Positions 24,060 to 56,663 of a stretch of DNA of 64,000 bases are shown here, one piece after another. The notes beneath the pieces are model-generated. The model was not told the DNA's origin and made no database searches. It saw only the letters and a list, made by a program, of their open reading frames with translations. This DNA is from an uncultured Verrucomicrobiae bacterium (GTDB lineage Bacteria > Verrucomicrobiota > Verrucomicrobiia > Chthoniobacterales > Chthoniobacteraceae). Made by a program: the position numbers and the translations under genes. Within the stretch, counting starts at the first letter, position 1, and every line of letters starts with the position of its first letter. The stretch lies in the NCBI GenBank assembly GCA_963836755.1, contig CAWIKF010000001.1, forward strand, positions 576,001 to 640,000, written 5' to 3'.

Positions 24060-26813
24060 ATGAGCGACCGCCGCAAACCGTATCCGTTTGACCGCATCGA
24101 CGCCCGCTGGCAGGCGCGGTGGGAAAGCGAGCAGACCTTTCACGCGCCGAATCCCGGCGAGCCCGGGTTCGATCCGACGCTGCCAAAATTCTACGTGCTC
24201 GATATGTTCCCGTATCCGAGCGGCGCGGGTCTCCACGTCGGCCATCCGATCGGCTACCTCGCGACAGACATCCTCGCGCGCTACAAAAAAATGCGCGGCT
24301 GCAACGTCATGCATCCGATGGGTTGGGATGCATTCGGTCTGCCCGCGGAGCAATACGCCATCAAGACGGGCCAGCATCCCGCGGTCACGACCGCGCGAAA
24401 CATTGCCGGCTTTAAGGGGCAGCTCCAGCGCATCGGGCTCGCGTATGATTGGGCGCGCGAGGTCAATACCACCGATTCGGGTTATCTTCGCTGGACGCAG
24501 TGGATCTTTTTGAAAATTTACGACTCGTGGTTTGATCCGGAGCAAAACAAAGCTCGTCCGATCTCCGAGCTGGTCGAGAATTTGAAATCAAAGTTCGCGG
24601 ATCCCGTTGAATTGCGCCGCGAAGTGGATGCCCACCGCCTCGCTTACGTCTCCGAGGCACCGGTAAATTGGTGCCCGGCCCTCGGCACCGTCCTCGCGAA
24701 CGAAGAAGTGATCGACGGCAAGAGCGAAGTCGGCGGCCATCCCGTCGAACGCCGACCGATGCGCCAGTGGATGCTTCGCATCACCGCTTATGCGCAGCGG
24801 CTGATCGACGAACTCGACGGCTTGGATTGGCCCGAAGGGATCAAACTTTTGCAAAAAAACTGGATTGGCCGCAGCGAAGGCGCCGAGGTTCGGTTTGAAA
24901 TCGATGTGGCTGCGCCGAAACCAGCAGGCGATGAGCCGGCTCTCCCCGGTATCCCGGTTTTCACCACGCGGCCCGACACTCTTTTCGGCGCGACCTACAT
25001 GGTGCTCGCGCCGGAGCATCGGCTCGTCGAGCAAATCAGCACCGAAGAACAATGGCCCGCTGTTCGCGACTACCGCGAGCGCACCGCGCGCAAGAGCGAC
25101 CTTGATCGCACCGAGCTGGCCAAGGAAAAAACCGGCGTCTTCACGGGCGGATCCGCGATTAACCCGGTCAACGGCGAGCGCATCCCGATCTGGATCGCCG
25201 ATTATGTCCTGCCCGGTTACGGCACCGGCGCGATCATGGCCGTCCCCGCGCACGACGAGCGCGATTGCGAATTTGCGAAAAAGTTCGACCTGCCTATCCG
25301 CGAAGTAGTCGCTCCCATCACATCCGCGCCCGTGACGACGAATCCCGAAAAGGCCTGTTTTGCCGGCGAGGGCGTTGCCATCAATTCCCAGATCCTCGAT
25401 GGCTTGCCCACGACCGAGGCCAAGAAACGCATCGCCGAATGGCTGGAAGAGCGCGGGCTTGGTAAAAAGACGATCAATTACAAATTGCGCGACTGGCTTT
25501 TCTCCCGCCAACGCTATTGGGGTGAGCCGTTTCCGATTGTCTGGGAAACCGGAGCCGATGGGCAGTTGCACCACCGCGCATTGGCGGAAACCGAGCTGCC
25601 GCTGCTCCCGCCGGAACTCGACGACTTCAAACCGACCGGCACGGGCGAGCCGCCGCTTGCGAAGGCGGTGGATTGGATTCGCTACTCCGACACCGCGACC
25701 CGCGAGACGAACACCATGCCGCAATGGGCCGGCTCGTGCTGGTATTACCTCCGCTATTGCGATCCGCGGAACGAGGCGCGCTTCGTCGGGGTCGAGGCTG
25801 AGCGATACTGGATGGGTGCTTTGGGTTCGAAACCCGGGAATTTGGATGCTGAGGGCCGGGCTATGGATTCAAAGTTTCAACCTGCGGGTTCAAATGTTCG
25901 ATCCTCGGATGCAAATCCTCATCCTGGCGGCGTCGATCTTTATGTCGGCGGGACCGAACACGCGGTGTTGCATCTCCTTTACGCCCGCTTTTGGCACAAA
26001 GTCCTCCACGATCTCGGCTACCTGAGCACGCGCGAGCCATTCCAGCGCCTCGTCAATCAAGGCCTAATCCTGGGCGAAGATGGGCAGAAGATGAGCAAGT
26101 CTCGCGGCAATGTGGTCAATCCCGACGACGTGATCGCCGAATACGGCGCGGATGCGTTCCGCTGTTATGAGATGTTTATGGGGCCGCTGGAGCAGATGAA
26201 GCCTTGGTCGATGACCGGCGTGGAGGGCGTGTCGAGGTTTCTCGCGCGCGTGTGGCGGCTGGTGATAGAGGAAAACCAGTCTGGCGAATGGGTGCTGTCG
26301 GCCGCCGTGCAAGATGCGCCGCTCGAGAAAGCGCAGTTGAAGGTGATGCACGCGGCGATCAAGAAGGTGACCGCGGACATCGAGGCGCTGAGTTTTAACA
26401 CGGCGATTTCGGAGTTGATGATCTATGTGAACGCGTTTGTGAACGCGCCGGTGAAGCCGTTGGCAGCATTGCGGACGCTGTTGGTGCTGCTGAATCCGTT
26501 CGCGCCGCATCTGACGGAGGAGCTTTGGGAGATTTTGGATTCGAAGTTCGCCGAGGCGAATCAAAGACCGTTGCTCTGCGAGCAAAAGTGGCCCGAGTGG
26601 GATGAAAGTTTCCTCGTGGAGGATGAAATCGACATACCGGTGCAGGTGAACGGCAAGCTGCGCGACAAAATTACCGTCAAAAAAGACGCAACCAACGCTG
26701 AAGTCGAAGCGCAGGCGCTTGCTGCACCAAAAATTGCCGAGCACACAGCCGGGAAAACCATCCGCAAAGTTGTGGTCGTCCGCGGCAAACTCGTCAACGT
26801 CGTCGCCGCCTAG
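24060..26813 (+). CDS. leuS: Leucine-tRNA ligase (with in-frame repeat insertion)
   Basis: [21 protein letters not shown] editing domain, KMSKS. Confidence 0.97.
25821..25925 (+). repeat. Five degenerate 21-nt units inserted in frame in leuS
   Basis: Cores TGGGTTCGAA, TGGATGCTGA, TGGATTCAAA, CGGGTTCAAA, CGGATGCAAA at exact 21-nt spacing. Confidence 0.75.
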
Positions 26814-38171: not shown

Positions 38172-39743
38172 ATGATCGAACAAGTCAAACGGATTCTCGG
38201 ACTGACCAAGCAGACCGGCATTAAGCTCGTCATCAACAGTGAAAAACTCGAACGCCGTGTCGCCCTTCTCGAAAACGGACAGCTAGAGGAATACAACGTC
38301 GAGCGCGAAAGCGATCGCAACATCGTCGGCAGCATTTTCAAGGGCCGCGTCAAAAACATCGAGCACGGCCTCAAGGCAATGTTCGTCGACATCGGCTTCG
38401 AGAAAAACGCCTTTCTGCATTTCTGGGACGCGCTTCCGGCCGCGCTCGATAGCGGCATCGAGCAGGTCGATCGCCCCGGCGGCAAAAAGAAAAGCACACG
38501 CATCTCCTCCGCCGACATCCCGAAGATTTACCCCGTCGGTTCCGAGGTGCTCGTGCAGGTGACCAAAGGCCCCATCAGCACCAAAGGCCCGCGCATCACC
38601 ACGAACATTTCCCTGCCCGGGCGTTACCTCGTCCTCATGCCTTTCAGCGACCAGAGCGGCATCTCGCGAAAGATCGAATCGCCAAAAGAACGCGAGCGCC
38701 TTCGCAAAATCCTGCAGGAACTCAAAGTCCCCGAGGGCATGGGCGTCATCGTCCGCACCGTCGGCGAGGGCCAGCGCGCCCGCTACTTTGTCCGCGATAT
38801 CGGCCTTCTGCTCGAGCAATGGCACGCCATCGAGGAGCAGATGAAAACCCAGCCCGCCCCCGCGTGCGTCTTCCGCGAGCCCGACCTCATCGAGCGCACC
38901 GTCCGCGACTTTTTGACCGACGAAATCGACGCCGTCTTCTGCGATGACGAAGCAGCCGTCAAGCGCATGCAGGACCTCGTCGGCCAAATCTCCCGCCGCT
39001 CCCGCAGCCGCATCCAATTCTACGCCGAGCACCAGCCGATCTTTGAAAAGTTCAACGTCCAGAAACAAATCGACGACGCCTTTCATCGCCAGGTCTGGCT
39101 GAAATGCGGCGGCTACATCGTCATCGATGAAACCGAGGCCCTCATCGCCATCGACGTCAACACCGGCCGCAACAAAGGCGGCAAAGAAGTCGAGAAAACC
39201 ATCTTCCAGACCAACATGGAAGCCGCCGAGGAAATCGCCCGCCAGCTCCGCCTGCGGAACATCGGCGGCCTCATCATCGGCGACTTCATCGACATGAAAA
39301 ACCGGCGCGACCAGCAGGCCGTCTTCCAGCGCATGAAAGAGCGCCTCCGCCGCGACAAAGCCAAGACCCACGTCCTCCCCATCTCGCCCCTCGGCCTCAT
39401 GGAAATGACCCGCCAGCGCGCCCACGAAAGCCTCAGCGGCACCGTCTACGAGCCATGCCCCAATTGCCACGGGCGCGGCCGCGTCAAAACCGCCATGACA
39501 ATGAGCGTCGAGCTCCAGCGCGCGCTCCACTCCATCATGCGCAAACATCAGGACACCATCCACGACATCCGCGTCATCGTGAACCCGGCCGTCCTCCAGC
39601 GCCTCCGCGAGCAGGACGAGGAACTGCTGATCAATATCGAGCGCAAATACGAGGGCCGGCTGACATTCCGAGCCGACCCCACGTATCATCTCGAGCAATT
39701 CATGGTCACCGACGCCAACAGCGGCCTCGAGTTGAAATCCTGA
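38172..39743 (+). CDS. Ribonuclease E/G family protein
   Basis: S1 domain GSIFKGRV, TEALIAIDVNTG, RLRNIGGLI, CxxC..G. Confidence 0.93.
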   Translation: MIEQVKRILGLTKQTGIKLVINSEKLERRVALLENGQLEEYNVERESDRNIVGSIFKGRVKNIEHGLKAMFVDIGFEKNAFLHFWDALPAALDSGIEQVDRPGGKKKSTRISSADIPKIYPVGSEVLVQVTKGPISTKGPRITTNISLPGRYLVLMPFSDQSGISRKIESPKERERLRKILQELKVPEGMGVIVRTVGEGQRARYFVRDIGLLLEQWHAIEEQMKTQPAPACVFREPDLIERTVRDFLTDEIDAVFCDDEAAVKRMQDLVGQISRRSRSRIQFYAEHQPIFEKFNVQKQIDDAFHRQVWLKCGGYIVIDETEALIAIDVNTGRNKGGKEVEKTIFQTNMEAAEEIARQLRLRNIGGLIIGDFIDMKNRRDQQAVFQRMKERLRRDKAKTHVLPISPLGLMEMTRQRAHESLSGTVYEPCPNCHGRGRVKTAMTMSVELQRALHSIMRKHQDTIHDIRVIVNPAVLQRLREQDEELLINIERKYEGRLTFRADPTYHLEQFMVTDANSGLELKS

Positions 39744-39767
39744 CCCATCTGCGGCCGGGCAAAGTCG

Positions 39768-39862
39768 GCCACGGATGCACACGGGTGAAACACAGATACG
39801 GATTCCCATGCGGCCGTCCGTGGTTTCTCCACATCCGTGTTTCATCCGTTCACATCCGTGGC
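39768..39862. repeat. Palindromic element with 30-nt inverted arms
   Basis: Left arm GCCACGGATGCACACGGGTGAAACACAGAT (39768-39797) vs right arm ATCCGTGTTTCATCCGTTCACATCCGTGGC (39833-39862); related arm at about 40310-40330. Confidence 0.75.
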
Positions 39863-40143
39863 TGAAAACTCGGCGTCCCAACGAGAAAACCCGACGTCCG
39901 GTGGAGAAAACTCCACGTCCGATGGAGAAAAGCTGAGGTCCCGCGGGGAATTTCTCACGTCCCGTTGAGAAACTTCACGTCCCGGGGAGAATTTCCCACG
40001 TCCGATGCAGAAGTTTTCACGTCCCGGGGAGAATTTCCCACGTCCGGTGGTGAAGTTTTCACATCCCGAGGAGAAGTTCTGACGTCCCGTGTAGAAGTTT
40101 TCACATCCCGAAGCCATTTCCTCACGTCCCGCCGTCGAAAACG
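39851..40143. repeat. Degenerate 21-nt-period tandem array (about 14 units)
   Basis: Core (C/G)AC(G/A)TCC recurs every 21 nt (one 20-nt unit), usually with GAA at offset 14-16 and variable segments between. Confidence 0.9.
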
Positions 40144-40175
40144 GATGATTTGAGACAAATCTCTCGCGAAATCAC

Positions 40176-40281
40176 CGGGAGCGCACGCTTCCAACGTGCA
40201 GTCGCTGGCATCCTGCCGGCGACATCCGCGAAGGATTCGGCAAGGATGCCGAACCCGGCACGCTGGAAGCGCGCGCTCCCG
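40176..40281. repeat. REP-like palindromic element
   Basis: GGGAGCGCACGCTTCCAACGTGC ... GGCATCCTGCC ... GGCAAGGATGCC ... GCACGCTGGAAGCGCGCGCTCCC nested inverted repeats. Confidence 0.8.
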
Positions 40282-40392
40282 ATAAGAGCCGTCCGTCTCA
40301 TCCCAAAAAATCCGTGTCCCATCCGTGGCTGAACCAAATGGAACCCGCACGAATCTCCTTCCCAATGCACCCGGAAACGTCACTCTCCCCAA

Positions 40393-41184
40393 ATGCCTGA
40401 AAACACACCCGCCACCCCAGCCGCTCCCGCCCCGAAAAAACACAAAACCCCCGGCCCCATCGACAGCGGCCTCGTCGCGCAGCTGCGCCTCGACCAGGGG
40501 ATCATCGACTCTGCGCACGACGAGATGAGCACCGACCCCACATTCGTCACCGCCCTCAGCACCCATTTTCTCGACCGCGAAAACACCATCGCCATCACCC
40601 CCGCCAGCCTCGCCACACTTTCCACACAGGCCGGCTCCGCCCTCGCCGCATCCGGCGCGATCACCGCCGCGCAAGCCGCTCTCGACAACGTCACCGACGA
40701 CGAAGGCAACGACGCGAAAACCGCCATCGCCGCCATCCGCGCCGTGCAAGGCGCAGCGAAGGAAAAATACGAAGAAAGCGCCCCCGCGCGGCTCGGCGCC
40801 TACTTCATCGGCCACCGCCTCCACTCCCGCGACGATATCAGCACGGCCGGCACCGCCGCCTACCAGCAATTGCGCACCACCGATGCGAGCGGCAACCCCG
40901 TCACCCCGCAGGACACGCTGCCCGGTTTCACACAACCGCGCATCGATCAGCTCAAGATCGACCTCGGCAGCTACCTCACCATCGAGACCGAGCAAAGCGG
41001 CGCGCAAAAAGATACGACCGATGCGCGCAACGCCTTCGCGAATGACTGCGCGCAAGTCAGCCGCCGCCGCCGCAAACTGCAACTCGCCGTAGATGTCGAG
41101 CGTCCCTACAGCAACCCCGCGAACACCATGTTGCCCGCCTTAACTCATGGTTTTGTCCAAAGGCATCTGGAGGCGGCGGCGTAG
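40393..41184 (+). CDS. Hypothetical Ala/Thr-rich alpha-helical protein, 3' end possibly replaced
   Basis: 263-aa ORF with strong C-ending codon bias to about 41128, then an abrupt switch to AT-richer sequence. Confidence 0.7.
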   Translation: MPENTPATPAAPAPKKHKTPGPIDSGLVAQLRLDQGIIDSAHDEMSTDPTFVTALSTHFLDRENTIAITPASLATLSTQAGSALAASGAITAAQAALDNVTDDEGNDAKTAIAAIRAVQGAAKEKYEESAPARLGAYFIGHRLHSRDDISTAGTAAYQQLRTTDASGNPVTPQDTLPGFTQPRIDQLKIDLGSYLTIETEQSGAQKDTTDARNAFANDCAQVSRRRRKLQLAVDVERPYSNPANTMLPALTHGFVQRHLEAAA

Positions 41185-41592
41185 CGTTATATGCATTTGA
41201 GGACCAATTGTCCTTAAGGCCTATTCCCACGCTTTACAATGTTTAACTTCACACGAGCAGGCCTTAGCTTAGAGAAGGCTGCAAAGATGGCGGCAGCCGG
41301 GGACGAACGCATGACAGCACACCTCGGGAAGGCGGAGCGCATATCTTGAAGTCACGTTTCACGTTTCAGGAGACACTAGCGACGATCTCCTTGTATGAGC
41401 GCGTGCTAGCGGCCGCGCAGAATCTGACTGGCACGATTCCGATTAGGCAGAATTGCGAAGAGATGAAGATGCGTCTGCAAGAATACAGCTCGCAATGGAC
41501 ACAATAAACCTAGCTATCTGGCTGCTCTCCATTGTTATGATCGCCCGTTGGCTACTATCTTTGCCATTGTCGACAAATCCTAGCTCAAGATT

Positions 41593-41883
41593 ATGACTCC
41601 ACGAAACAATCCGGAATTTAAGGTAATCGTCGCTCACTGCGAGGTCTTCCAATTCGCCTGCAACCAAAATTGGGATTTGATGAGACCCATCACAGAAAGA
41701 ATTCGTGTGTGCGAGGAGTGCTCTGAGCGAGTTTATTTTTGCCGCAATGAGACAGAGTTTCGGAAGCACGCTTCCCAGGGCGAGTGTGTTGCTATTGAGA
41801 TCGTTTCTGATGGGCCATCTGTGTCCGAAACAGCGAAGCGCAGAATTCTTGCCGGAATTCCCATCCTACCGAAGTTCGATTGA
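41593..41883 (+). CDS. Small Cys-rich hypothetical protein
   Basis: FACNQNWDLM...RVCEECSERVYFC...HASQGECVA; inside AT-richer island. Confidence 0.6.
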   Translation: MTPRNNPEFKVIVAHCEVFQFACNQNWDLMRPITERIRVCEECSERVYFCRNETEFRKHASQGECVAIEIVSDGPSVSETAKRRILAGIPILPKFD

Positions 41884-41890
41884 TACAATC

Positions 41891-42109
41891 ATGCCTCCCA
41901 AACGCCGATTAACCCGCAAGAACCTTCCTTACATTGCCGATGCTTTTTCGCAGGCGCTCTCGGCCATTAAGGAGCTTGACCATGCCATGTATTTCTATGC
42001 TTCAGAGGATCACCCCATGCGTTTACGAGTTGGGGATCTCTACCGCCGCATTGAGACCCTGCATGCCGAATTCGCAGAAGCTGTCAAACGTAAGGAACAA
42101 CACTTATGA
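41891..42109 (+). CDS. Small hypothetical protein (72 aa), putative cassette gene
   Basis: ATG at 41891; stop lies just upstream of an attC-like site. Confidence 0.5.
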   Translation: MPPKRRLTRKNLPYIADAFSQALSAIKELDHAMYFYASEDHPMRLRVGDLYRRIETLHAEFAEAVKRKEQHL

Positions 42110-42122
42110 ATCACAACAACGG

Positions 42123-42182
42123 GCCTAGCCCTGCGATGCAGCTAACAGGCTCTGCTTGTAGCTAATCTTGTTCTCGTTAGGC
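42123..42182 (+). mobile_element. attC-like integron recombination site
   Basis: R'' GCCTAGC (one change from RYYYAAC), inner hairpin AGCTAACAGGC/GCTTGTAGCT, R' GTTAGGC; 60 bp; next ATG 14 nt later. Confidence 0.7.
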
Positions 42183-42196
42183 GCTTTCCACGCACC

Positions 42197-42607
42197 ATGA
42201 GATTCGTTGTGTTAGCCGCGACTTTCTCGCTCCTTCCGGTGATTGCGTTCGCTCAATTCGGAGTCGAGGATACTCGCAATCTCGGCTTTGGATTCCGGTA
42301 TGAGACGCATGCAGAACCAACCAACTCTTCGTTCGAGAGCATCACACATCAGGCTTATCTATACTATGGTGATCGCAAGCTTTGCAATGTCGGCGAGTAT
42401 TCCATCGCTCCTAGCGGTAGATTCGCAATCTATCAAGATGGCCCTTCGGGAACGCTCTTTCTATTTCGTCGCGCTGACGGCAAGATATTCCAGCTTACTC
42501 CTAAGTCCATCGGATTTCCCGAGACGTTTGTATGGCACGAGCGAGTCCACACCGTTGAGGTTCATCTCGAACACATCAAGACCCCGGCGATATTCCAATT
42601 ACCATGA
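42197..42607 (+). CDS. Exported hypothetical protein, putative gene cassette
   Basis: Signal peptide MRFVVLAATFSLLPVIAFA; flanked by attC-like sites. Confidence 0.65.
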   Translation: MRFVVLAATFSLLPVIAFAQFGVEDTRNLGFGFRYETHAEPTNSSFESITHQAYLYYGDRKLCNVGEYSIAPSGRFAIYQDGPSGTLFLFRRADGKIFQLTPKSIGFPETFVWHERVHTVEVHLEHIKTPAIFQLP

Positions 42608-42715
42608 CAAGATGCGCTGCAGCGAACCGGTCCGCACGTCACCTGCTTCGGCCGCCGCCTTTCCACCATTCATTGGCAGGAGCTCCCTCGTAGCTGACCT
42701 TAATTTACATTAGAC
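42602..42715 (+). mobile_element. Degenerate attC-like site
   Basis: ...GCGCTGCAGCGAACC...GTAGCTGACCTT...ATTAGAC parallels the first site; R' is mutated (ATTAGAC); GTG start 2 nt later. Confidence 0.5.
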
Positions 42716-42717
42716 CC

Positions 42718-43191
42718 GTGAAGAAGCTGCTCCTACAGATCGCTGTTTACTTGAGCTTCTTTAGCTTTACTGCTTCTGGGCAAGATTATCTCAAGCGATA
42801 CGATAAGCCGCTAACCTATAAGCAGGCTATCAAAGAGAAGGACATCGATTTTCCTCTCCCTGCATCGAGCCATGATATCTACTATGCGATGTATGGCGAT
42901 TGGCAGGCTTACACGCGGCTGGTGCGTTTTGAGGCGCCGGTGGCGGATTGCGTGAAGCAGGTCGATGCGGTAATTGCGTGGGACGATAAGCTCTACAAAC
43001 GGACTTCCGCATATCATCGCTTCAAAGTCACCCACGTTGATGCGCCTGGCGCTGGATATCTGGATCCGACACCTTGGATTACTCCGGGGACAATCAAACG
43101 TGGATTGTATGCCGGCAAGGAGTCGAGCCACACTCCTGAGATCTGGATCGATCTCGACAGAGGTATCTTTTACTTCAAGGAGTGTGATTAA
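42718..43191 (+). CDS. Exported hypothetical protein, putative gene cassette
   Basis: GTG start, signal peptide KKLLLQIAVYLSFFSFTASG. Confidence 0.65.
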   Translation: MKKLLLQIAVYLSFFSFTASGQDYLKRYDKPLTYKQAIKEKDIDFPLPASSHDIYYAMYGDWQAYTRLVRFEAPVADCVKQVDAVIAWDDKLYKRTSAYHRFKVTHVDAPGAGYLDPTPWITPGTIKRGLYAGKESSHTPEIWIDLDRGIFYFKECD

Positions 43192-43215
43192 ACTTCTGTC
43201 CGCTCCTTTGCAGAG

Positions 43216-54135: not shown

Positions 54136-54443
54136 GGTGGCAACCGGTCGGCAATTGGTGCCGACGGGACTGAGATTAGCGCCCACCGGAACGGAAATGG
54201 TGACCACCTTTTGGGAATGGTGCCCACCTTTTGGAAATGGTGACCACCTCTTTGAAAATGGTGACCACCTTTTGGAAATGGTGACCACCTTTTTGGAAAT
54301 GGTGACCACCTTTTTGGAAATGGTGACCACCTTTTTGGAAATGGTGACCACCTTTTGGAAAATGGTGCCCACCTTTTTGAAATGGTGACCACCTTTTTGA
54401 AATGGTGACCACCTTTTTGAAATGGTGGCGACTTTTCGCAACC
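54136..54443. repeat. 20/21-nt tandem array (GGTGACCACC-T4/5-GGAAAT)
   Basis: Eleven near-identical units at 54199-54423, three degenerate 21-nt units before and one after. Confidence 0.93.
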
Positions 54444-54539
54444 AGTTTCGGCCGTTTACTCTGTAGACCCGCTGGAAAAAAGGCACAGTCGCCTGAAATC
54501 GCATCGACAGTTCAGAGCTTCCAGAGCAAAAATCCCCCC

Positions 54540-56663
54540 ATGCACCCTCCATTCAACACTCGCTTCGCACGCGCCTTCCTGGTCGTCGCGGTTTTAACTT
54601 TAGCGCCAATTGCCAGCGGTTGGGCGGCGGCGCGAGTGGATCAAGAGCTGCCGGACGGCTGGAAGTTCATCAAGGACGATGCGGGTGCGACAGCCGCGAC
54701 CACGAACTGGGAAAAGGTTACCATCCCGCACACTTGGAACACCGTCGACGCCGACAAGGGCGACCACGGGAAGGACCCGCATTATAAAAATGGCTATTAT
54801 CGCGGCGCTTGCTGGTATTCCCGCACTATCGACGCGCCTGCAGCGTGGAAGGGAAAACGCGTTTTCGTCCGGTTCGAGGCCGCGTCGCTCGTCGCGAAAG
54901 TTTACCTCAACGGACAGGAACTCGGCGAGCATCGCGGCGCATTCACCGCGTTTTGCTTCGAGTTGACCCCGCTGCTGCATCCCGGCGCGAACGAACTCCG
55001 GGTCCAGGTTGACAACTCGGGCCAAAAAGATGTCCCGCCCCTCGGCGGCGATTTCAACGTCGATGGCGGCATTTACCGCCCCGTCCATCTCATCGTCACC
55101 GACCCGGTCTGCATCACGCCGCTGGATTTCGCGTCGCCCGGCGTGTTCGCGAGCACGAAGTCAGTCAACGCCGCCGCCGCGCAAATCTCAGTCGCGGCGC
55201 TCATTTCCAATGGCAAATCCGCAGCCGCGCAGGTGCGGGTGAAAACTGACATCACCGACGCGAGCGGAGCCGTGGTGGCCACGCAAACCCGTCCCGCGAC
55301 CATCGCTGCGGGCAAGACCGAGCCGGCAAACTTTACCCTGAACGTCGCGTCGCCGCACCGCTGGAACGGACGGAAGGACCCATATCTTTATACCGTGAGG
55401 GTTTCCGTCGAGGGCGGCGAGGCTTCGGACGCGGTCAGCCAGCCGCTCGGCATTCGCACAGTCGAGATCACCGAGGCGCAAGGCTTTCTTCTCAATGGCC
55501 AATCCTACCCGATCCACGGCGTGAACCGGCATCAGGATTGGGGCGGGCAGGGATGGGCCGCGACGCCTGCGAACTTTGACGAGGATGCGCAGATCATGCT
55601 GGACATGGGCGTGACCGCCGTCCGGCTGGCGCATTATCCGCAGAGCGATTACTGGCACAACCTCTGCGACCGCAACGGCATTCTCCTTTGGAACGAAATC
55701 TCGCTGGTGAATCTCATTTCCGACTCGCCGGAGTTTGCCGCCAATGCCGAGCAGCAGCTCCGCGAGATGATCCTCCAGCGTTACAACCACCCGAGCGTCG
55801 CCTTTTGGGGACTCTTCAACGAGCTGGGATTGAGCACCACGAAGCCGCCGGATGCGTTGTTGCAACATCTCAAGGAGGTGACGAACCAACTCGACCCGTC
55901 GCGCCTGATCGTCTGCGCCATTTACAGCAAACACCGAAGCTACAACCAGATCGCCGACCATCCGTGCTTCAACATTTACCCCGGCTGGTATGCCGGAATC
56001 GATAATTTCGAAAAGCTGATCGCCGAGTGCCATGACGAGGTCGGCAAGCGAATCGCCATCAGCGAATACGGCGCGGGCGCAACCCCGGCCGCCGACCAGC
56101 AACAGGAAGGGCCTTTGACGCAAAAACGCGGCGGCAAGCTCCACTCGGAGCAATGGCAGGTCCACGTGCACGAGGTGCTCTGGGCGAATTTCAAGGACAA
56201 CCCGATGCTCTGGGGCACCTTCGTCTGGTGCATGTTCGACTTTCAATCCGCGCGCCGTCACGAGGGCGGCTATGTCGGCGTGAACGACAAGGGCTTGGTC
56301 ACCGAGGATCGCAAGATCAAGAAGGACGCCTATTATTTCTACCAGGCGAACTGGACGCAAAAGCCGATGATCCACATCGCCTCCAGTCGGCTCGACCAGC
56401 GAAAGATCGCGACGACGTCGATCGAAGTTTTTTCAAATTGCAGCAAAGTCGAGCTGACCGTGAATGGGAAGGCGCTGCCAGCGGTCGCGCCCGATGGCGT
56501 CAAAGTTTTCCGTTGGGAGAATGTGGAGCTGAAAGTTGGAATCAACGAGATCGTGGCGAGGGCAACGTCCCCGCAAGGCCCCATCACCGACTCGTGCAAA
56601 TGGTCTCTCGTCGGCGATACGAATAGCTCCGTCGCTGCCCCATCAGGAACGCCGGCGCCTTAG
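54540..56663 (+). CDS. Secreted GH2 glycoside hydrolase (beta-galactosidase-like)
   Basis: GGIYRPV, GVNRHQD, RLAHYP, NHPSVAFWGLFNE, SEYGAG, NDKGLVT. Confidence 0.9.
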   Translation: MHPPFNTRFARAFLVVAVLTLAPIASGWAAARVDQELPDGWKFIKDDAGATAATTNWEKVTIPHTWNTVDADKGDHGKDPHYKNGYYRGACWYSRTIDAPAAWKGKRVFVRFEAASLVAKVYLNGQELGEHRGAFTAFCFELTPLLHPGANELRVQVDNSGQKDVPPLGGDFNVDGGIYRPVHLIVTDPVCITPLDFASPGVFASTKSVNAAAAQISVAALISNGKSAAAQVRVKTDITDASGAVVATQTRPATIAAGKTEPANFTLNVASPHRWNGRKDPYLYTVRVSVEGGEASDAVSQPLGIRTVEITEAQGFLLNGQSYPIHGVNRHQDWGGQGWAATPANFDEDAQIMLDMGVTAVRLAHYPQSDYWHNLCDRNGILLWNEISLVNLISDSPEFAANAEQQLREMILQRYNHPSVAFWGLFNELGLSTTKPPDALLQHLKEVTNQLDPSRLIVCAIYSKHRSYNQIADHPCFNIYPGWYAGIDNFEKLIAECHDEVGKRIAISEYGAGATPAADQQQEGPLTQKRGGKLHSEQWQVHVHEVLWANFKDNPMLWGTFVWCMFDFQSARRHEGGYVGVNDKGLVTEDRKIKKDAYYFYQANWTQKPMIHIASSRLDQRKIATTSIEVFSNCSKVELTVNGKALPAVAPDGVKVFRWENVELKVGINEIVARATSPQGPITDSCKWSLVGDTNSSVAAPSGTPAP

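Follow-up and report, generated by a model that had tools for sequence, protein, structure and literature searches.

Constant-length tandem repeats of 20-21 nt with variable sequence were described in Bacillus and other organisms by Subirana and Messeguer, who guessed that a protein polymerizes on them; in the available parts of their report no linked gene is given and no protein is named (PMC8161180), and the available part of a second paper holds nothing further on 21-nt units (PMC6749651). Here we analyze an array of such units, and the gene that follows it, in a 64,000-nt stretch of DNA (the window; positions without a prefix refer to it) from an uncultured Verrucomicrobiae bacterium (assembly GCA_963836755.1, contig CAWIKF010000001.1, positions 576,001 to 640,000). 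The two parts of the locus are:

~39864-40140, + strand: array built from 13 units, 21 nt long except for one of 20, in which the blocks GAGAA and CACGTCC are separated by about a turn of the helix
40393..41184, + strand: gene whose 263-amino-acid (aa) product is all-helical and internally duplicated (module 1 covers about aa 25-137 and module 2 covers about aa 146-246)

As in the repeats of Subirana and Messeguer, so far as the available text describes them, the period is fixed at 20-21 nt, several sequence families occur in one genome, the units are non-coding and each carries a short conserved motif; those authors too remark on two helical turns. By size, variable sequence and non-coding character, the arrays analyzed here belong to this class. 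Unlike the repeats in that text, they have a protein family linked in cis, whose build matches the symmetry and length of the unit. The repeats as such are already known; the pairing of array and protein and the symmetry rule are the new part, and a literature search that had most subscription journals and supplements outside its reach found no paper on either.

Further systems are compared here as far as the available parts of the cited papers describe them. KfrA of the IncU plasmid RA3, an alpha-helical protein, binds the repeated operator O_K at its own promoter in autoregulation; O_K comprises five 9-nt repeats that overlap the promoter and occur once per replicon, several units are needed for binding, and the protein, encoded on broad-host-range plasmids alongside kfrC and partition genes, has segrosome partners and represses that promoter (PMC7783346). 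The window protein is likewise mostly alpha-helical with repeats at its own promoter, autoregulation being shown for KfrA and presumed here, whereas the present arrays have 10-17 units of 21 nt, lie upstream of the predicted promoter, are chromosomal, occur at dozens of loci and have no partner gene. No plasmid match and no family match pointed to a KfrA-type context, nor was a kfrC or partition gene found among 89 open reading frames (ORFs) flanking 27 homologue loci, the set to which all statements on flanking ORFs refer. The BrickBuilt MITE (miniature inverted-repeat transposable element) of Porphyromonas gingivalis has 23-nt units of one sequence family and a leader and tail with terminal inverted repeats (PMC4596501). 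It resembles our arrays in being dispersed, intergenic, built of imperfect direct repeats and edged by promoters; no cognate gene is described for it, and no leader or tail with terminal inverted repeats was seen around the 13 sister groups inspected. Type III toxin-antitoxin loci (toxIN, cptIN, tenpIN) carry RNA pseudoknot repeats, with a promoter before the array, a terminator between array and gene, and an RNase toxin; the repeats are 31-62 nt x 1.9-5.6 in toxIN and 40-48 nt in cptIN (PMC3401426). There too a repeat array precedes a single gene; no Pfam, NCBIfam or PADLOC family of a ToxN/CptN/TenpN-type RNase was found in the 124 members of the protein family examined (the 124 members below).

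Helically phased repeats coated by a protein encoded next door are known from ParR/parC, TubR/tubC and Rep-iteron origins, and type II/III plasmid partition systems and iteron replicons combine a ribbon-helix-helix or winged-helix binder with an NTPase or a Rep origin context. LAGLIDADG homing endonucleases read palindromes as homodimers and asymmetric sites as fused pseudo-dimers. Unlike all of these, the present locus gave no ribbon-helix-helix, winged-helix or nuclease match, and no NTPase or Rep gene was present among the flanking ORFs. CRISPR arrays consist of constant repeats and unique spacers of about 20-50 nt, accompanied by cas genes, and TIGR-Tas arrays of 36-nt units with two spacers, accompanied by a Tas protein with a Nop domain. 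An earlier reading of the window from its letters alone (the sequence-only reading) had set both aside, and its judgement holds: the variable segments take up 4-6 nt of a 21-nt period, an Rfam scan of the array gave nothing above the gathering score and no CRISPR match, no cas family occurs among the flanking ORFs, and the period was 21 in 22/22 family arrays. A check for the Nop domain gave no Pfam match in the 124 members; the fold lists, being generic helical bundles, are unable to exclude a family.

Linkage of the array and the gene

The array and the gene form one real, conserved module. The family of the window protein comprised 29 non-redundant full or near-full loci outside the genome, 28 of them with upstream DNA, and an upstream 21-nt array was found at 22 of these 28, always with period 21 and 11-312 nt ahead of the start codon. 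Downstream of the genes, the same test reached its 0.52 threshold in no case in any of the families. Duplicates of one locus, loci of the genome itself (except L245, which is flagged) and fragment matches (L007, L008, L031-L036, L041) were excluded, as were 1, 1, 2, 1, 4 and 3 loci with too little upstream DNA in the six sets affected. Linkage was also seen at 35/38 and 21/27 loci of two one-module families, and at 11/23, 8/11 and 6/16 loci of three others. The sequence-only reading had proposed an array-plus-gene module and the collection of homologues to look for it; on the counts given above, the module is borne out.

The flanking ORFs held no shared partner family, and the neighbours differ at each locus; typically the unit stands behind a housekeeping gene (rpsD, dnaB, aspartokinase, prmC) and ahead of orphans. 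One serine recombinase and one transposase fragment were present among them, no mobility enzyme being consistently nearby. Presence is patchy, at 9/101 genomes of the family, and no relatives were found in plasmids, phages or IMG/VR. Broad phylum searches (3 and 4/401 genomes) were insensitive, with 7 candidates per genome.

Symmetry of the repeat units and build of the protein

The symmetry of the units matches the build of the adjacent protein across five families. Symmetry was scored as a two-fold axis in the unit profile against column permutations. The rule was first seen in the genome itself, where 21-nt arrays were palindromic before 6/8 one-module genes with a beta domain and before 0/8 two-module genes, and 41/42-nt arrays before two-module genes were palindromic in 3/3 cases. 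It was then repeated outside the genome: one of 22 21-nt arrays was palindromic in the two-module family of the window protein, against 24 of 33 in the one-module family with a beta domain (Mann-Whitney p 8e-7), where two arrays of 42 nt were palindromic as well (2/2). One-module proteins with FN3 gave 13/20, plus 1/1, two further all-helical types 0/6 and 1/8 (one of the eight from the own genome), and two-module proteins with FN3 11/11, all of period 41/42. The window unit as a whole is non-palindromic (dyad z 0.4, p 0.33). A doubled period accompanies two modules plus FN3. The simpler rule that the period doubles with the rod module was rejected: the period is 21 at 7/8 two-module genes without a beta domain in the own genome and at 22/22 outside it.

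The sequence of the units turns over while the period stays fixed. Median unit similarity was 0.27-0.33 within families and 0.24-0.30 between them; since units of one family are about as unlike as those of different families, symmetry outlasts sequence. Above 40% protein identity, unit similarity climbs with it (Mantel rho 0.31, 0/2000 permutations). The pairing of homodimers with palindromes and of pseudo-dimers with asymmetric sites is a signature of double-stranded DNA recognition. We therefore lean, with some reserve, towards the reading that the protein binds its own array, lining the repeats beside its own promoter with one module per DNA turn.

Architecture and rhythm of the array

Unit borders were set by the TCC block, which starts 14 times from 39852 to 40124. 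The spacing between successive starts is 21 nt in 12 of the 13 intervals and 20 nt in one (39957-39976); the true number of units is 13, because the first start is part of the flanking hairpin. CACGTCCCGGGGAGAATTTCC is present twice, at 39976 and 40018, and Tandem Repeats Finder (TRF) scored the array 166 at period 21 and 209 at period 42. The observation behind the sequence-only reading is confirmed and its interpretation partly supported. Its array with two conserved blocks is there, as are the repeated unit sequence and the 20-nt unit, and the 263-aa ORF that it put about 250 nt behind the array starts after about 255 nt. Its figure of about 14 units is right for the TCC starts and one too high for the units, and it overlooked both that the gap consists mostly of inserted REP-like (repetitive extragenic palindromic) hairpins (40176-40281) and that the protein has an aberrant end. 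Units of 20 nt were seen too in arrays 5, 22 and 58 of the same genome. Among three DNA runs from one study (X1-X3), no contig spans the 20-nt unit at 93% likeness; the gene is partly covered at 95-100%, and the 20-nt unit and 41129-41201 are uncovered.

Within the unit, conservation has two peaks separated by one helical turn. Of the conservation power, the 10.5-nt harmonic accounts for 0.43 in this array and for 0.30 in the 22 family arrays, against 0.10 expected (0/1000 permutations), and the 3-nt harmonic was not enriched in these 22 (p 0.985). Period and rhythm are compatible with B-DNA, and we infer that the array acts as DNA. Phased A/T tracts were rejected as the read-out, the AT profile being without a clear harmonic.

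The protein

The AlphaFold2 model is an all-helical rod (pLDDT 91.6, pTM 0.72) made of two runs of short helix, loop and long helix. The two halves align as profiles (hhalign E 1.5e-4, probability 51%, 65 columns), and the model of a one-module relative from another array has one such helix-loop-long-helix run plus FN3. Conserved polar residues of the family consensus (T101, E104, Q119, K125, R146, Q201, R212, R226, Q230, D234) sit mostly on the two long helices and form no evident catalytic set; no nuclease, recombinase or polymerase feature was found in the protein.

Pfam gave no family above cut-off for the window protein, and PADLOC none; among the 124 members no Pfam, NCBIfam or PADLOC family reached cut-off, and no PADLOC family was matched by more than one member. 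Foldseek against PDB and viral models returned nothing at E<=0.001, a wide VIA structure search returned generic helical bundles (best Z 9.5, rmsd 3.9, 147 aligned) in the range expected of helical models, and a profile search of solved structures gave a single match at E 0.32. Unnamed helical proteins of similar size are NF052641 (PQLLE family) and PF19775 (DUF6261). The former matched 8/124 members, the window protein not among them (best E 1.3e-6; best 28 bits against a cut-off of 80); the latter is a neighbour in the Atlas, though a weak one (0.86 with 139 features in common; module 2, 0.90 with 155), whose hidden Markov model (HMM) matched none of the 124 members. Both are possible distant kin, which is not membership.

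The description of the protein as carrying no recognizable motif stands, and the structure prediction and fold search that had been suggested gave a helical rod with generic bundles as its sole matches. The protein is no orphan: besides 29 close relatives, 472 of the 50%-identity representatives match at E<=0.001, and look-alike protein clusters occur in Verrucomicrobiota and Bacteroidota. "Effector" in the defence sense finds no support, with no PADLOC family, nor does propagation of the array by the protein find direct support, given the features absent from it; processing is disfavoured, as the predicted promoter before the ATG would leave the array outside the transcript.

The gene, its leader and the probably inserted stretch

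The module lies within a longer, probably inserted stretch, whose further features are:

39744..43215, no strand: 3,472 nt separating rng (RNase E/G) from a degP-like gene, the two being convergent
39765..39865, no strand: REP-like long hairpin at the distal array end, common to the sister copy at C1:273583
40176..40281, no strand: inserted REP-like hairpin doublet; the same motif flanks a unit in an alaS-like ORF, C1:60097-61799
40310..40333, + strand: half copy of the distal REP-like hairpin
40359..40386, + strand: predicted sigma-70-type promoter (-35 TTCCCA 40359-40364, 16-nt spacer, -10 CACTCT 40381-40386)
41131..41184, + strand: diverged 3' end of the gene, in which the family C-terminal motif R-x-x-(L/F)-x-L-P is lost
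41193..41222, + strand: decayed attI-like site, aligning to the intact site behind the paralogue C2:1698816-1699586
42123..42182, + strand: attC of an integron-type gene cassette, a passenger outside the core module
42603..42715, + strand: degenerate attC-like site, also a passenger

In the same-genus genome G002 the stretch is missing and the rng and degP-like stop codons are 5 nt apart; the stretch is probably an insertion. The predicted -10 element ends 6 nt ahead of the ATG. A -10-like hexamer stands 6-7 nt before the ATG in 8/11 close homologues and in at most 2/11 at any other offset; the pattern occurs in 1/15 distant homologues, whose leaders are longer and A/C-rich. Such a placement predicts a likely leaderless mRNA that would start at the ATG and exclude the array. 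No terminator-like site was found on the + strand in 39600-41500, and a further sigma-70-like site lies upstream at 39660-39689.

The match to the family ends at about residue 246. The last ~17 residues are unlike every homologue, and position 248, a nearly invariant R in the family, is P here. A simple frameshift was rejected, as no frame brings back the family tail; the window copy is probably damaged at its C-terminus. Third codon positions in 40393-41130 avoid G (C 0.64, G 0.17), a trait similar in most two-module genes and not in several one-module or FN3 genes; the 3' half of the neighbouring rng is likewise C-skewed.

A copy of the hairpin, array, leader and first seven codons, 89% identical, lies at C1:273583-274228; there (L010, C1:273583-274680) it is joined to an FN3-type gene, of which the 3' part is present, and an attI-like site comes next. 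The site behind the window gene and two sister units is attI-like and not an attC, and the one in the window resembles the site beside the genome's intI as well. The integron-type cassettes in the stretch have lower GC and carry attC sites. A general tie between arrays and integrons is weak by attC proximity: 8/71 arrays have an attC within 5 kb, where 3.5 would be expected (at most 9 in 500 draws). A contig of run X1 joins 42183 to 42611, omitting the cassette between the attC sites with only 25 letters on the short side, and may represent another cassette array. Elsewhere in the genome, 45 nt separate the end of the sole integron integrase above cut-off from a 41-nt array and its gene for a 348-aa helical protein with FN3 (L063, C2:763489-766140), and a related array-gene unit lies within a further attC cluster (C2:1470100-1471462). 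Both of these 41-nt two-module units with FN3 carry, in the interval from array to gene, a TGGCAC-N7-TGC motif that we take to be sigma-54-like (C2:764535-764570 and C2:1471140-1471240, minus strand).

Arrays across the genome

The whole genome (3.18 Mb, 4 contigs), which named homologue records and the taxonomy of close matches place among soil Chthoniobacterales, was scanned for 55% identity at a given lag over 126 nt. Lag 21 yielded 54 loci, and other lags from 5 to 63 yielded 0-5, except 41 (13), 42 (53) and 63 (48); the 21-nt periodicity is not chance, because unrelated lags yield so few. Merging TRF and lag results (62 + 9, after one TRF row in a coding repeat was dropped) gave 71 arrays, many with unrelated unit sequences, and periods of 20, 41 and 62 nt occur among sister arrays. 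Of the 71 arrays, 23 precede, by no more than about 600 nt, genes or gene pieces that fall into eight related-looking types, and for 22 of the 23 the distance is within 310 nt; the window protein's own family has five loci. The other 48 lack a family gene at that distance and are often 85-90% identical to a gene-bearing array.

Promoter-like sequence recurs at the array edges. TTACTCTG has 31 sites in the genome, 20 of them within 200 nt of an array (19 arrays; ~0.5 expected), and a TT -35 stands at the array edge at 11 of these 20 sites against 0/11 elsewhere; in two same-genus genomes the motif runs into an array at 6/8 and 3/8 fetched sites. CAGAGTAA was considered as an element end and makes more sense as a -10 box in reverse; it occurs at only 6/103 gene-linked arrays elsewhere. 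The flanks of 13 sister groups had no shared terminal inverted repeats and no common ends: shared sequence stops at variable places, and only the -10-like motif recurs.

The window holds two further arrays. At 54193-54427 there is a gene-less 20/21-nt array with core GGTGACCACC, a sister of arrays 0, 5 and 30, whose edge carries a predicted promoter (motif 54456-54463) facing a 707-aa ORF that starts at 54540 and by appearance reads like a sugar hydrolase. The other, at 25811-25967, is a degenerate 21-nt array that the lag scan found and TRF missed, with no adjoining family gene. The hairpin doublet of 40176-40281 is copied inside long ORFs reading as alaS and ispG (C1:60097-61799, C2:1020821-1020896); arrays 2 and 39, of 21-nt units, lie in the open frame of these ORFs as well. 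Array 28, together with its leader and the start of its gene, recurs as a 496-nt duplicate of 96% identity at array 37 (C2:660721-661741 and C2:923700-924210), where the gene is truncated, a second case of an array kept and a gene lost.

Proposed mechanism and alternatives

"Bind" is the best-supported verb for what the protein is predicted to do, from the symmetry rule and the 10.5-nt rhythm. The array would offer many binding sites on double-stranded DNA to the product of the gene that follows it. Both helical modules would contact a conserved block apiece, a turn of DNA separating the two blocks; each 21-bp unit would then hold a single two-module monomer, and about a dozen monomers would line one face of the helix by the predicted promoter. 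One module per turn is, we infer, the economical reading of the symmetry rule: one-module relatives with FN3 or a beta domain may dimerize and hence need a palindromic 21-mer, and two modules plus FN3 may yield the palindromic 41/42-mer. As KfrA does on five repeats, the filament on the array would set the output of the promoter beside it, and gene-less sister arrays may control host genes. The unit would spread as a passenger cassette with outside help, because it encodes no mobility enzyme.

Several observations weigh against this proposal. The window protein is acidic (charge -7, pI 5.5; family median +2, pI 8.6), as are most of its paralogues in the genome, and charge by itself is no argument for DNA binding; Foldseek, VIA, Pfam and solved-structure profile searches found no known DNA-binding fold or motif. 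No array was detectable at 6/28 homologue loci, and the a53 type has one doubtful and no convincing array in three testable loci. Departures from the rule include array 43 (one module, yet 42-nt and non-palindromic), array 20 (21-nt and non-palindromic, with a 317-aa protein that has a beta domain), array 53 (without FN3, yet 42-nt and palindromic) and the 9/33 and 7/20 one-module arrays that are non-palindromic. The families are few and related, and the p-values overstate independence; the module counts of the a54, a62, a53, a34 and a20 types come from length and weak HMM matches, not from models. Two 75%-identical paralogues (arrays 5 and 58) differ in their unit cores, which strains a strict sequence read-out. 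Finally, the window promoter is ~220 nt from the array, because hairpins were inserted.

Alternatively, the reader of the array could be a host protein, or DNA shape alone could be what counts; the array would then be a regulatory or nucleoid element and the adjoining gene only a regulated passenger with some other role. We regard this as unlikely, though it deserves to be taken seriously: it accords with the 48 arrays that lack a family gene, with the -10-like motifs and TT -35 elements at array edges, with the frequent acidity of the proteins and with the repeats in the available text of PMC8161180, which are reported there without a linked gene. It leaves unexplained why a different build of the neighbouring protein goes with a different unit symmetry and period, both classes occurring in one genome, and why unit similarity tracks protein identity above 40%, though linkage alone can yield such tracking. 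Rather improbable is a by-product or substrate of the unit's spread, that is, a minisatellite within a MITE-like or promoter-carrying element whose copying, rather than any reader, keeps 21 bp. Sister arrays of 85-96% identity are indeed scattered over the genome, the 89%-identical hairpin-array-leader copy is fused to a gene of another family, the site is empty in G002, and the 27 loci share no neighbour; yet terminal inverted repeats, common ends and a regular mobility enzyme are missing from the places searched, and the symmetry rule would be left unexplained.

Readings in which the array is expressed fare worse. That it is transcribed, its RNA binding or neutralizing the protein in the fashion of a type III toxin-antitoxin system, seems to us quite improbable. 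The order of array, hairpin and gene recalls the type III layout, and the toxIN repeats described in the available part of PMC3401426 are longer and fewer than the 13 units of 21 nt here. The array RNA folds slightly better than shuffles, a marginal effect (z -1.87; 6/200 shuffles equally good), and the sigma-70-like site at 39660-39689 could serve such a transcript; the hairpin, however, is an inserted REP-like element rather than a + strand terminator, the promoter-like -10 stands directly before the ATG, period and rhythm fit B-DNA, and neither an Rfam family above the gathering score nor a PADLOC family for the window protein was found. That the array encodes a heptad-repeat peptide partnering the helical protein is barely tenable and has already been largely refuted. 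The number 21 is divisible by three and a minus-strand frame is open across the array (ORF 39842-40117, 91 aa), but stops occur in all three plus-strand frames, 1-nt indels at two places set this array apart from that of the 89%-identical sister copy, conservation has no 3-nt rhythm, sister arrays have 20-, 41- and 62-nt periods, and the 22 family arrays, five of them without an open frame, share no peptide. The same evidence upholds the sequence-only reading in its argument against coding heptads.

Binding of the array by its own protein therefore remains the reading that we favour. Its bolder extension is tentative: a large superfamily of modular helical DNA readers, with one turn of DNA per module, in which module fusion or dimerization would set the symmetry and length of the target, with polymers on self-arrays and with gene-less arrays whose promoters would bring host genes under the protein's control.

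Significance

Constant-length, free-sequence 20-21-nt repeats were published as an enigma for which, in the available text, a polymerizing protein was merely guessed (PMC8161180), and the present locus family names candidate proteins for this unexplained class. It also yields a cheap and sharp prediction, namely that the target's symmetry and period follow from how many modules the protein has and from its oligomer state. If the proposal is true, it would add a new fold for DNA recognition, obeying a rule of one module per turn, along with a new scaffold from which DNA-binding filaments could be built, and in some soil Verrucomicrobiota genomes it would reveal a dispersed regulatory or selfish element present at dozens of loci.

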